This document shows positions 14,704-19,825 of a DNA stretch of 52,112 nt, piece by piece. Position 1 is the stretch's first letter, and the number at the start of each line of letters is the position of its first letter. A model generated the notes under the pieces. It was not told the origin of the DNA and searched no databases. It saw only the letters and a program-made list of their open reading frames with translations. The translations under genes were made by a program, and so were the position numbers. Location of the stretch: contig DATDYA010000012.1 of assembly GCA_035289165.1 (NCBI GenBank), positions 1-52,112 on the forward strand. The letters are read 5' to 3'. The DNA comes from Patescibacteria group bacterium. Its GTDB lineage: Bacteria; Patescibacteriota; Patescibacteriia; Magasanikbacterales; GWA2-37-8.

Positions 14704-15030
14704 TTTTTTGTATAACAATTAACTAGAGAGAAAGCACTTCTTAATGCTTTCGTTGTACGCTCGACCGATTAGTACGCCTCGGCTCAACATATTACTATGC
14801 TTATACCTAGCGCCTATCAACCTCGTAGTCTACAAGGAGTCTATAACGAATGTTAATCTTGAAGACGGCTTCACGCTTAGATGCTTTCAGCGTTTATCCG
14901 TGCCGAACATAGCTACCCAGCAATGCCCCTGATGGAACAACTGGTACACTAGAGGTTCGTCCATTCCGGTCCTCTCGTACTAGGAATGAGCCTTCTCAAC
15001 ATTCTACGCCCGCAACAGATAGGAGACCGA

Positions 15031-15347
15031 CAATTATGTTACATTCTCTTTCGAGACGGCATGTCATTTCTGACATACTCTGCATGTCGCCATGCAGTTC
15101 GGACTATATCTTATCCCAACTCGGGATTCTAGCGTATAGTCTCTGAGGATTCTAGCTATTTTATAAAAATAGCTAGTCTTTCCTGCTGATTGTCTGCACT
15201 CAACACATTTTCACTAGTGGAACTTACCACTTAGTAGTGTGAGATTCACAAGCCTCACTCCTAAATGAGACTTCCAGAGTTTCCAGCATTTGGCTAGATT
15301 TAAGGACAGCATGGTCTCTTTTTTGGCTAATATTAGCCAAACTACCT
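15031..15347 (-). mobile_element. group I intron (ORF-less) in 23S domain V, after the residue I align to E. coli U2604
   Basis: The exon sequence GTCGTGAGACAGT|TCGGTCTCCTATC is split. The upstream exon ends in U and the intron ends in G (complement of c15031). The core motif AAGATATAGTCC is present (RC of ggactatatctt at about 15100). Confidence 0.75.
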
Positions 15348-15391
<44 letters not shown>

Positions 15392-15440
15392 TGGCGAACA
15401 GCCAAACCCTTGGGAGCTTCTCCACCCCCAGGATGCGATG

Positions 15441-15715
15441 CACATTATTCCATTATTACTAATGGTGCAGACTATATCTTCATCCTTCAAAAAACGAAGG
15501 AGTCCGGCGTATTATAGTGGGCATAAATTTCTTTTTGCAAAGAGTGCCCGACTATCTAGGTCAAATGACCTCAGTCGTTACGGGGTCAATCTCAATAAAA
15601 TTGAGACGACTTCCCACGGTATTGTCCTACCCAAAATGGGTTACATTGAAATAGGAGTTCACCGTTATTAGCCAGATTATTCGTTCCAGATTACTCTGGA
15701 AGCGACCCTAATTTG
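15441..15715 (-). mobile_element. group I intron (ORF-less) in the 23S peptidyl-transferase centre, after about U2511
   Basis: Splits GTCGGCT|CATCGCATCC. The upstream exon ends in U and the terminal intron G is the complement of c15441. Core AAGATATAGTCTGC is present (RC at about 15467). Confidence 0.75.
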
Positions 15716-15726
15716 AGCCGACATCG

Positions 15727-16611
15727 CTGTCGGAACTATTCCACGATTTCTCATGGCGCAGACTATATCTTCATCTTGCTCTGGATCGTAGCTGTTTACT
15801 TTTTTAACAGCATAATCTCAGTTTTATTTGCAAGCGTCGGCGTATTGCGGTTTGTGTTAAAAACCGCCTCCCCTTTCGGGTCAGTCGTTACGGGGTCAAG
15901 CAATCTTATATTTCATGGATGGAATTATGTATTGTTCGAGATTAAATTTTAATCTACTATAACTTTTCGATGGGATATAAATACAATAGGAATCTTGGTG
16001 CTTTTGAATATTAGAGTCTATCCCTAGCTTCAAAAGGCTTTTCCTAATTGTGCTCTGTTCGTATTTATCGTACCCTTGAGTATTTAATCTCAAAGCTCGA
16101 CAATCGTTCCTTTTATATCCGTCATCCATAATCCAAACTGCTAATATCATCCAATTAATTATCCTTGGAAGTTTTTTTGGAATTACTTTCTTACCTTTAT
16201 TGTAGAATAACTTGTAATAATTCTTCAGAACGGAGGAAGCTCTAGTCCTCACTATTACATGAGAATAAATTTTTCCGGTCCTTCTGTCTAAACGATCCTT
16301 TTCTACAACACTTGGAAAAAACTCTTTCAAATAACTTGCCTTCCATTCTACATATTCTTTTTGTTTAGAAGAATGATCGGCTATTAATCGATAATTTTTT
16401 CCATTAAGCTCCAAAAAACCATCACCCAGCAAAGTGCCGAGTATGATATTTCGCTGAAATACATCTTGCCGACTTCCCACGGTATTGCCGTGCAAATTCG
16501 CTTCCATAAATTAAATTTATGTAAGAATTATACCATGAATTTGCTTACGGTTCCACCGTTATAAGCCGAATTTTTGGTACAGTGTTTCTACTGTAGCACC
16601 CCGATGTGTTA
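15727..16611 (-). mobile_element. group I intron with a LAGLIDADG homing-endonuclease ORF, after about U2500
   Basis: Splits GGCACCT|CGATGTCGGCT. The terminal G is the complement of c15727. Core AAGATATAGTCTGC is present (RC at about 15757). The ORF sits in a peripheral loop between the conserved elements cagtcgttacggggtc and ttcccacggtatt. Confidence 0.85.
15896..16507 (-). CDS. double-motif LAGLIDADG homing endonuclease (intron-encoded)
   Basis: LGTLLGDGFLE and AVWIMDDGYK motifs. 203 aa, located inside the group I intron. Confidence 0.85.
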   Translation of the reverse strand: MEANLHGNTVGSRQDVFQRNIILGTLLGDGFLELNGKNYRLIADHSSKQKEYVEWKASYLKEFFPSVVEKDRLDRRTGKIYSHVIVRTRASSVLKNYYKLFYNKGKKVIPKKLPRIINWMILAVWIMDDGYKRNDCRALRLNTQGYDKYEQSTIRKSLLKLGIDSNIQKHQDSYCIYIPSKSYSRLKFNLEQYIIPSMKYKIA

Positions 16612-17137
16612 AGGTGCCAAACCTGGCCGTCTATATGGACTATCGGGCCAGATCAGCCTGTTATCCCCGGAGTAGCTTTTATCCGTTGATCTTCCACCTT
16701 CCTATGAAGAGTGGTCGGTTCACTTACTTCTGCTTTCGCAACTGCTCGGGTTGTAGCCCTTGCAGTAAAGCCAGCTTTTGCGTATGCACGTCCAGCTCGA
16801 TTTCCATCCGAGCTAAGCTGACCTTTGTAAACGCCTCCGTTACATTTTGGGAGGCAACCGCCCCAGTTAAACTACCCATCAGCCACTGTCTTCTCTTCCG
16901 GATAACGGAAGAAAATTAGGAATAAAATTAGGTAAGGGTGGTGTCTCATTGGCGCCTTGCGGCTCCCACCTACGCTGAACATACCTAACCTTATCCCAAT
17001 AGCAAATTGTAGTAAAGCTTCACGGGGTCTTTTCGTCTAGTTGCGGGTAAGAGGCATCTTCACCTCTCTTGCAATTTCACCGAGTCCTTCGTTGAGACAG
17101 TCCTCATATCGTTATGCCATTCGTGCAGGTCGGAACT

Positions 17138-17397
17138 CCATTTGTTATCATCTTGTTACCAAGATGTTCAGACTATACCTTCATCTTATTAATCTTTAAT
17201 TAATAAGAGCTGACGTGTTAGCCAATTTTATTGGCTCTCGCCTTTCGGCTCAGTCGTTACGGGTCTCTCAAAAAGTGAGAGTTCCCACGGTATTACCCGT
17301 TGTTGCCAACGGCGCTCCACCGTTATGAGTCAGTGTGCTTGTGTCATGTCACCACGACACTCGGGCAAGTTATCATCCGACCAGAATGATTTAGTTC
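17138..17397 (-). mobile_element. group I intron (ORF-less), after about U1951; the boundary at 17138 is uncertain by 1 nt
   Basis: Splits CTTGTCGGGT|(G)AGTTCCGACCTGCACGAATGG. Core AAGGTATAGTCTGAAC is present (RC at about 17168). Shares the cagtcgttacggg...ttcccacggtatt elements with the introns at 15441 and 15727. Confidence 0.7.
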
Positions 17398-17417
17398 ACC
17401 CGACAAGGAATTTCGCT

Positions 17418-17682
17418 CAGCGCTTCCTTTTAATGGCGTTGGACTATATCTTCACCCTATTCTTAAGGGGCATAGCGTTTAGTCTCTGAGGGGATCGACT
17501 TTCAATCGATCTTCCCTGCTGATTGCCTTCTTCAGGTTCCCAGCATATAGCTATGATTGGATTATTCTTCACATTACTGTGAAGTAAGGCAGCTTTTAAA
17601 TGGCTATTTTTTTACTCTGCATATTCATGACTGTGTTCTATATCCGTCCCAATCCTAGTGAATTCAATTTCTTGGATCCACT
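17418..17682 (-). mobile_element. group I intron (ORF-less), after about U1931
   Basis: Splits CCGTCCTAAGGT|AGCGAAATTCC. The terminal G is the complement of c17418. Core AAGATATAGTCC is present (RC at about 17441). Shares tagtctctgagg and cttccctgctgattg blocks with the intron at 15031. Confidence 0.75.
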
Positions 17683-18467
17683 ACCTTAGGACGGTTATAG
17701 TTACCGCCGGCGTTCATCAGCGCTTCGGTTCAGAGCTTGCACTCCTCCCCTTAACGTTCTGACACTGGCCAGGCATCACCCCCTATACTTCAGCTTACGC
17801 TTTTGCAGGGAGCTGTGTTTTTGGTAAACAGTCGCATGAGGTCTTTTGTTGTAACCCTGATAAATCAGGGTGGGCCTTATCCCGAAGTTACGGCCGCTGT
17901 ATTGCAGAGTTCCTTAACGAAGGTTCTCTCGTACGCCTTGGTCTACTCGACCTATCCACCTGTGTCGGTTTAAGTACGGTTATTTGCCGCTTAACGGTTC
18001 CAACCTTTTCTAGGCACCTCATCCCTTTAAGTTGACTCTACCCGGAGGCTTTGTCTTCATCTTGCGAAACGTGCATATTCGAAACACGCTTAAAGTTTAA
18101 AGATGCGCAGTTGAAACCAAACGGCAAACAGTGCAGGAATATTAACCTGCTCGTCCATCGACTACCCCGCCTGACGGCGGACTCACCTTAGGACCGACTA
18201 ACCCTGGGTCGATTCTCGTTGCCCAGGAAACCTTAGATTTTCGGCGCCAGGGATTCTCACCCTGGTTTTTGCTACTTATGCCTGCATTCTCACTTCCTAA
18301 CACTCCACCATGACTCACGTCTATGGCTTCAGTGCGTTAGGAACGTTCCTCTACCACCCAGCGTGGGGCGAACCCCACTCTGAATTCGCAGCTTCGGTAC
18401 CATATTTTAGCCCCGGTACATTTTCGGCGCGAAAACTCTTGACCAGTGAGCTGTTACGCTTTCTTTA

Positions 18468-18504
<37 letters not shown>

Positions 18505-19825
18505 GAGAATTAACACCACCTTTTACACTTAATATGGATTTAGGGACCTTAGCTAGCGATCTGGGCTGTTTCCCTTTTGAAAACGGCGCTTAGCCGTCGC
18601 TTTCTGACTCCTGTGTTTTGATCTCCGGCATTCGGAGTTTGATTGAAAACGGTATCCCGAAGGACCCAGTTCTCATCCAGTGCTCTACCACCGGAGGGAT
18701 CACACAAGGCTAGCCCTAGAGCTATTTCGAGGAAAACCAGCTATTACCGAGTTCGATTAGAATTTCTCTCCTATCCACAACTCATCCCCGCATGTTGCAC
18801 GGTGCGTGGGTTCGGACCTCCTCTCAACTTTCGTTGAGATTCATCCTGGTCATGGATTGCTCACCCGGTTTCGGGTTATGTGCATGCCACCTAGTCGCCC
18901 GTTAAGACTCGCTTTCGCTCTGCCTTCGGACCAGAGGCCCTTAAGCAAGCGACATACACATACTCGCAGGCTCATTCTTCAATAGGAATACAGTCACCCT
19001 TACGGGCTCCTGCTCTTTGTAGGCACACGGTTTCAGATACTATTTCATCGCCCTCTCCGGGCTGCTTTTCACCTTTCCCTCGTGGTACTTGTCCACTATC
19101 GATCACCAAATGTATTTAGCCTTAGACCATAGTCGGCCCAGGTTCAGACGGAATTTCACGAGTTCCGCCCTACTCAAGAGCATAAGCCATGATAAATTAA
19201 CTCCTTTCACATACGGGACTATTACCCTCTGTGGTTGTTCTTTCCAGAACATTCTACTAGGAAAGCTAATTGGTCACCTGACTGCACAGAAAGTCAGCGC
19301 TTATGTCTTACAACACCTTATAAGCAACGGTCTGCACCTTTAATTTGCAAATCATAAATTAATCCGAAGACTAACCACTTTTTGCAAAAACACTGTATAA
19401 GGTTTGGGCTTTTCCCTGTTCGCTCGCCACTACTGAGGGAATCTCTGCGATTTCTTCTCCTCTGGCTACTGAGATGTTTCACTTCGCCAGGTCTTCTCCA
19501 TACACCTATGTATTCAGTGTACAGTACTGCCTCGCGGCAGTGGGTTACCCCATTAGGACATTCCCGGATCAAAGGTTGCTTGGGACCTCCCCGAGACTTT
19601 TCGCACCCTGCGACGTCCTTCTTCGTCATTTGGTGTCTAGGCATCCACCGTGCGCCCTTGTTGAAATTGCGCACAACGAAAACACTAAATTGTGCTTTCG
19701 TTTTGTATATATTATATACCTACATTACCCTAGTTAATTGTCAAAGTACTTTCCGTTACTTCCAACACTCTCATTCGATCTCAAGCGAACTCTTTTTAAA
19801 GCCCTCGCTTCAGACCGAATTAATT

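Follow-up and report, generated by a model that had tools for sequence, protein, structure and literature searches.

The 23S rRNA gene and its micro-exon

The window (the whole 52,112-nt stretch of DNA analysed, contig C12 of an assembly of 0.96 Mb in 70 contigs that is 95% complete) carries on its minus strand a bacterial LSU rRNA, a 5S rRNA and several matches to the Rfam Intron_gpI model. The 23S rRNA gene lies at 14760..19671 (minus strand; LSU_rRNA_bacteria, 1924 bits), and a check of the whole assembly found no second copy, so it is a single-copy gene. When the minus strand is compared with E. coli rrlH by blastn, the resulting exon map resolves the gene into six exons and five group I introns, L1931, L1951, L2500, L2511 and L2604. 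In E. coli numbering (Ec), and all on the minus strand, the exons are Ec20-1931, ending at 17683; Ec1932-1951, of 20 nt, at 17417-17398; Ec1952-2500 at 16612..17138, with the 3′ end ...GGCACCU; a micro-exon of 11 nt, Ec2501-2511, at 15716..15726 (CGAUGUCGGCU), which matches E. coli exactly; Ec2512-2604 at 15348..15440, 90% identical to E. coli; and Ec2605 onwards, from 15030. The 23S exons of this genome are well conserved, and the named loci closest to them are from Parcubacteria. Together with the size of the genome and of the genomes in its phylum sample (0.4-2.1 Mb), this makes a bacterium of the Patescibacteria (CPR) probable.

Several features of the gene and genome lie apart from the 11-nt exon. 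The 20-nt exon Ec1932-1951 is a second micro-exon (17398-17417, minus strand), flanked by the L1931 (17418-17682) and L1951 (17139-17397) introns, and the same layout occurs in loci L008, L011 and L167. The first base 3′ of the L1951 intron, window position 17138 (minus strand), is G, against A1952 in E. coli, unless the 3′ boundary of that intron is one base off, in which case the difference would be a 1-nt deletion. The fifth intron, 3′ of U2604 (15031-15347, minus strand; Intron_gpI, 70.6 bits), belongs to a sequence family distinct from the L1951, L2500 and L2511 introns, and its site is occupied in many relatives. Outside the window, seven more Intron_gpI matches are found on contigs C20, C37, C3 and C40 (four of the seven above the gathering score), indicating that other genes of the genome are interrupted too.

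Read from 15726 to 15716 on the minus strand, the 11 nt (CGATGTCGGCT) are identical at 11/11 positions to E. coli 23S C2501-U2511 and include A2503, U2504, G2505 and U2506. The blastn blocks on either side, Ec1953-2500 at 17137-16612 and Ec2512-2604 at 15440-15348, agree with this placement. Even with up to one mismatch allowed, the 52-kb window contains a single instance of the 11-mer, and the chance of an exact match at one fixed position is about 4^-11. Group I introns follow a U at the end of the 5′ exon and have G as their own last base; both flanking introns obey these rules, their 5′ exons ending in U2500 and U2511 and the introns themselves in G. The initial annotation of this DNA had assigned the 11 nt to C2501-U2511 and had given coordinates for the two neighbouring introns; the assignment holds, and the coordinates agree exactly with the exon map.

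On this sequence evidence, the 11-mer is a genuine exon, belonging to the only 23S rRNA gene of the organism. It is very improbable that the match arose by chance and that 15441-16611 is one intervening unit, or the gene a dead one, with the 11-mer being no exon. We found no support for this, and the only room left to it comes from the shortness of the match; against it stand the exact match of all 11 nt at the one place required, the presence of two complete ribozyme cores that each have a P1 and a terminal G of their own, the recurrence of the 11-mer between these same introns in 11 further species, and the conservation of the exons in what is the sole 23S copy. A twintron is a different arrangement, in which one intron is inserted into the sequence of another, with no exon between the two. 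That reading is ruled out here, given that the intervening 11 nt are the exact exon needed in the mature rRNA, and it is also contradicted by the occurrence of each intron alone elsewhere.

Two group I introns and their guide pairings

The L2511 intron (15441..15715, minus strand, 275 nt) contains no ORF and ends in G. Its match to Rfam RF00028 (Intron_gpI) extends over 15449-15726 with 47.6 bits (E=1e-10; gathering score 50), and the Rfam alignment places the micro-exon as the 5′ strand of its P1. ORF-less L2511 homologues in other genomes score 54.6 and 51.2 bits, above the gathering score. The terminal G is found in ...AAUGUG, followed by CAUCGC of the next exon, and 13/13 tabulated L2511 introns end in G. 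The L2500 intron (15727..16611, minus strand, 885 nt), which also ends in G and has P7.1/P7.2 (IA-like), is matched by Intron_gpI in its 3′ half, at 15740-15989, with 22 bits (E=0.005; gathering score 50). This score is low because an ORF splits the core, and ORF-less L2500 homologues from other genomes that share the ends of this intron reach 51.1 and 52.3 bits, above the gathering score. The ends of the intron resemble those of the L2500 intron of G019, a relative of the same family, being 85% identical over the 5′ 86 nt and 77% over the 3′ 172 nt. The Rfam matches, the U and G splice-site rules and the homologues above the cut-off bear out the earlier call of both neighbours as group I introns.

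Twelve ORF-less L2511 introns, from CPR, Actinomycetota, Rickettsiales, Thiomargarita and other MAGs, were aligned and folded with RNAalifold. The consensus contains 76 pairs, with compensatory changes in 47 of them, and comprises P2 with a GUAA loop, P3, P4-P6, P7.1/P7.2, P8 and P9. P1 (exon 2508-2511 plus intron C1, paired with the guide GGGYC) was predicted by RNAalifold rather than imposed. The two introns have core blocks in common, and the 5′ ends of both are site-specific. Within the studied genome, the cores of the L2500 and L2511 ribozymes share an identity of 0.56, against a between-genome background of 0.55 ± 0.04, which argues that the pair is not a recent duplication. Judged by their sequences, the two introns are related and come from site-specific lineages of their own.

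A terminal omega-G is near-universal in group I introns. By exon-defined boundaries, 11 of the 18 L2500 introns tabulated end in A (...AUGUA/CGAUG or ...AAUAUA/CGAUG; loci L008, L010, L012, L018, L020, L021, L149, L155, L156, L157 and L167); the P7 sequence of these introns looks unchanged, and both introns of the studied genome end in G.

Guide pairings were tabulated for 18 L2500 introns and 13 L2511 introns. In the L2500 intron, the internal guide sequence at 16594..16607 (minus strand) is modelled as a P10 guide with an abutting P1 guide: ACAUCG (16607-16602) pairs with CGAUGU of the micro-exon (2501-2506), and GGGUGCUA (16601-16594), directly adjoining it, pairs with the 5′ exon through a U2500.G wobble. 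This P1 uses the last 6-8 nt of exon Ec1952-2500, with GCACCU facing GGGUGC. Introns of the L2500 family begin UAACACAUCG-GGGUGC or with close variants, and their P1 is formed by GGGUGC(UA) and the 5′ exon GCACCU (5-8 bp, including the U2500.G wobble); the six bases 5′ of the P1 guide (ACAUCG, AUAUCG or ACAUUG) form a P10 of 4-6 bp with 2501-2506 in 16 of the 18. The guide of the L2511 intron, GGGUCG at 15703..15708 (minus strand), forms P1 with intron C1, U2511 (a wobble), C2510, G2509, G2508 and C2507. Throughout this family (13/13), GG(U/C)CG pairs with CGGCU (2507-2511) over 4-5 exon bp plus 1-3 intron bp, while P10 is essentially absent (0-2 bp across the 13 introns tabulated).

The micro-exon, so modelled, is divided 6 + 5, nucleotides 2501-2506 serving the P10 of the L2500 intron and 2507-2511 the P1 of the L2511 intron. 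No nucleotide is claimed twice in the studied genome or at nine other double-intron loci at which both introns are readable; the exon sequence being invariant, P1 and P10 represent conserved complementarity, with no true covariation possible. The two helices are contiguous, meeting between 2506 and 2507 with no spacer. That both introns draw on the micro-exon for guide pairing, as first proposed, is borne out by the tabulated P1 and P10 models, and 11 nt suffice because one intron needs the first six for P10 and the other the last five for P1.

A further complementarity was seen within the exons themselves. Exon nucleotides 2502-2506 (GAUGU) are complementary to the omega-G plus 2512-2515 (GCAUC), in window positions 15712-15726 and 15436-15441 (minus strand), and RNAalifold pairs the two segments across the L2511 intron, in a helix that invariant exon sequence underlies. 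Such an exon-exon helix may make up for the absence of P10 in the L2511 intron, bringing its 3′ splice site to P1.

Distribution, endonuclease gene and mobility

Among 40 close relatives of the same family or order, 25 match the 23S query, and seven of these 25 (~28%) carry the L2500 intron alone, at lengths of 342-851 nt. The L2511 intron was found in none of the 19 relatives whose locus was mapped. One genome of the same genus (G001), whose contig stops near Ec2550, on the downstream side of the site, was left out, and the relative G002 gave no match to the 23S query.

The whole collection, with one genome per species, was scanned for the micro-exon together with the L2511 guide and the P2 loop, a strict pattern that gives lower bounds. 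A looser first pattern (the 11-mer plus GGYYG) had been unspecific, with one of 120 loci in a true 23S gene (L052) and the other 119 random. The L2500 + L2511 double, with the same 11-mer and the same introns, is present in at least 11 other species representatives: four Saccharibacteria, one Berkelbacteria, two Parcubacteria, one unclassified Patescibacteria, one Thiomargarita, one Desulfobacterales and one Dormiibacterota. At least 33 species have the L2511 intron alone (33/33 verified in 23S context), and these come from CPR, Actinomycetota, Thermoflexus, Anaerolineae, Gemmatales, Rickettsiales, a Thermosynechococcaceae cyanobacterium and one MAG labelled as an archaeon. An even sample of 400 genomes of the phylum yielded the L2511 pattern in one genome besides the studied one, and the intron is therefore rare. 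About a quarter of L2511 carriers also have the L2500 intron, similar to the ~28% among the relatives, and this comparison, a rough one given that the relatives are non-independent, gives no sign that an 11-nt exon is avoided.

The initial annotation had proposed comparing related genomes for the presence or absence of each intron, and the relatives and the whole-collection scan together turned up both single- and double-intron alleles, with identical boundaries. It had also expected the arrangement to be under strong constraint. This is reasonable for a 23S gene present in a single copy, but the arrangement is evidently tolerated, and with 11 other species sharing it, it is no one-off. Two of the loci outside CPR, L159 (a Thiomargarita MAG) and L162 (Desulfobacterales HSG2), have the same pair with both introns ~80% identical between the loci, a likeness that suggests horizontal transfer of the pair, or else a binning mix-up.

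The ORF in the L2500 intron (15896..16507, minus strand) encodes a 203-aa, I-SceI-like LAGLIDADG_2 homing endonuclease. It covers the whole of the Pfam profile PF03161 with 123.8 bits (cut-off 25) and has two motifs, ILGTLLGDG and LAVWIMDDG; the nearest PDB structures are 6x1j (E=1e-13) and I-SceI (E=3e-9, covering residues 20-202). The ORF is placed between two conserved blocks of the ribozyme core, the same structural position in both intron lineages, and the blocks of 18 and 19 nt that flank the ORF site are identical in both introns of the studied genome. At 16480-16520 (minus strand), as in homologous ORFs, the conserved core block AAUACCGUGGGAAGU also codes for the N-terminal GNTVGS of the endonuclease, so that protein and ribozyme share bases. 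Some 25 nt upstream of the endonuclease ATG there is a TATAAT-like hexamer.

A tree built from 32 intron-encoded enzymes groups the usual L2500 enzymes, that of G019 among them, in a clade of their own (99/95). The studied enzyme and the L2500 enzyme of a Berkelbacteria genome nest instead among seven L2511-resident enzymes (100/99), which suggests that it is an enzyme of the L2511 type. Thus, the ends of the L2500 ribozyme are orthologous to those of G019, but the ORF between them is homologous to L2511-resident ORFs. The simplest reading is that the endonuclease ORF switched introns, by recombination between neighbours. Endonucleases of rDNA introns group by insertion site (Haugen et al., PMC1995217), a pattern to which the studied enzyme is a small exception. 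At the 10 double-intron loci that are readable, there is one ORF in four, two in two and none in four. One endonuclease per pair as a rule was therefore rejected, on account of the two loci with two ORFs and the four with none.

Tentatively, the pair could be a composite mobile unit, in which the enzyme residing in the L2500 intron still cuts the L2511 site and repair copies both introns and the 11-bp exon together. The nesting of the studied and Berkelbacteria enzymes among L2511-resident ones (100/99) is consistent with such a unit, as are an L2500 ribozyme whose ends, unlike its ORF, are orthologous to those of G019, the identical 18- and 19-nt blocks, which could mediate transfer of the ORF, and the single ORF per pair at 4/10 readable double-intron loci. 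On the other hand, two double-intron loci have an ORF in both introns and four in neither, and the similarities of L2500 and L2511 introns across double-intron loci show no overall correlation (Spearman 0.17, p=0.25, with an exon control disturbed by additional introns in the 230-nt stretch used), giving no sign of joint transfer as a general rule. A fuller version we regard as rather doubtful: the ORF would have hopped from the L2511 to the L2500 intron via the shared 18-19-nt blocks, its enzyme would still target the 2511 junction, and the pair with its 11-bp exon would form one composite element, the spacing of which guarantees co-conversion. If this were true, one intron would carry the enzyme that drives the other's insertion.

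Splicing order and comparison with known systems

The explanation that we favour as a whole, with a probability of about 0.8, is that a true exon separates two site-specific introns whose guides are disjoint, that these can be spliced in either order, and that they spread by homing. Two neighbouring sites, L2500 and L2511, would each have been colonised by a site-specific group I lineage of its own. The L2500 intron would hold 2501-2506 for P10, selecting its 3′ splice site, and the L2511 intron would hold 2507-2511 for P1, defining its 5′ splice site. We infer that each ribozyme is able to splice alone and in either order, and that removal of one intron would leave an ordinary single-intron precursor, of a type that is natural in other genomes. 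At the DNA level, the pair would be maintained and spread by homing, with one I-SceI-like LAGLIDADG gene, of the L2511-associated clade, now residing in the L2500 intron.

The initial annotation had reasoned differently, holding that two introns separated by 11 nt must share or compete for the exon, and that this implies an obligatory splicing order or cooperative folding. The modelled pairings are disjoint and do not support sharing or competition. Each guide target is unchanged after removal of the other intron, and base pairing accordingly makes neither sharing nor a set order necessary. A model in which the introns share the 11-nt exon, with an obligatory order or joint folding, is in our estimation unlikely, and the arguments for it come from geometry and from a possible local structure. 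The guide helices are contiguous at 2506 and 2507 with no spacer, and the two ribozyme cores may for that geometric reason be unable to dock simultaneously; a steric or kinetic preference for one order is thus possible. Should both first steps take place before a ligation, only helices of 5-6 bp would keep the 11-mer in place. In addition, the tail of the L2500 intron, CCGACA, could form a hairpin with exon UGUCGG (2504-2509) at 15718..15738 (minus strand). This hairpin would put the 3′ splice site of the L2500 intron in a GCGA loop, would compete with both guide pairings and would hide the P1 target of the L2511 intron until the L2500 intron leaves, and in this way could impose an order. The CCGACA tail is also found in the L2500 introns of G019, L165 and L166, the last two being double-intron loci. 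However, the hairpin is a weak lead, since its predicted energy of -8.5 kcal/mol is barely better than that of shuffled sequence (z=-1.8), the tail is found in G019, a relative lacking the L2511 intron, and it is missing from most double-intron loci. Furthermore, the pairings are disjoint at every double-intron locus examined, and both single-intron states occur in nature with identical boundaries, which likewise argues against obligatory coupling.

[quoted passage not shown] 2024, J Bacteriol, PMC11270868). The group I introns of CPR often contain LAGLIDADG genes and cluster near the peptidyl-transferase centre in domain V (PMC11270868). The studied gene, with five such introns, fits this description. 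The text of that survey names sites 1917, 1931, 1952, 2593, 2604 and 2657, but not 2500 or 2511, and 23IS9-11 appear in its figures only; micro-exons, guide pairings and ORF switching between neighbours are not discussed there. Its enzymes are mostly single-domain LAGLIDADG_1, whereas the studied enzyme is a double-motif LAGLIDADG_2. In the literature searched, we found no mention of an intron at 2511 or of the L2500 + L2511 pair.

Short exons between bacterial 23S introns, as well as mitochondrial micro-exons, are already known. In Coxiella burnetii, the 23S introns L1917 and L1951 reportedly have a 34-bp exon between them. That exon of 34 nt and one of 14 nt (by arithmetic) in Synechococcus sp. 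C9 belong to the region of helices 69-71, in contrast to the studied exon of 11 nt in the central loop of domain V; the Synechococcus introns are at L1917 and L1931 (PMC1995217). Site 2500 itself is known from organelles, with 22 introns catalogued (PMC3873408), and from archaea, where LSU/2500 introns have been classed as IA3 (PMC6125680). These share the 2500/2501 insertion point with the studied intron, but they are single introns. Still shorter exons, of 1 nt between self-splicing introns, have been described in placozoan mitochondrial cox1 (PMC5436844) and in fungal mitochondrial rnl (PMC12308204). There, the exon is bordered by two group I (or group II) introns that are independent of each other, and both splicing intermediates have been seen by RNA-seq (PMC5436844, PMC12308204). 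Such micro-exons are organellar and mostly protein-coding, and they are too short for a canonical P1 plus P10, while the studied 11 nt are just enough for a P10 of 6 bp and a P1 of 5 bp. The double layout is not unique, and a modestly new aspect would be the endonuclease gene that appears to have switched introns.

The arrangement shows how tightly self-splicing introns can crowd into the ribosome's most conserved part without destroying it. Given its recurrence in CPR and in MAGs labelled as giant sulfur bacteria or as other phyla, it offers a natural system in which to ask whether adjacent ribozymes act independently in folding and splicing, how their 3′ splice sites are kept separate, and whether a homing endonuclease may serve the intron next to its own. 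In annotation pipelines and rRNA surveys, a pair of this kind will usually appear as a single large "insertion", with the micro-exon lost.

I-SceI is encoded by the omega intron of the yeast mitochondrial LSU gene, at site L2449, and is a monomeric double-motif LAGLIDADG enzyme. It resembles the studied enzyme in being a double-motif LAGLIDADG protein from a group I intron in domain V of the LSU, but the two are distant and their sites differ. The idea that 11 bp is the minimum spacing set by endonuclease half-sites was dropped in view of candidate micro-exons of 8 nt between sites 1923 and 1931. Another candidate micro-exon of 11 nt, Ec2594-2604, was picked up by the motif test alone at locus L173 (Actinomycetota MAG JAUJNI010000002.1), between L2593 and L2604 introns, and contains A2602.
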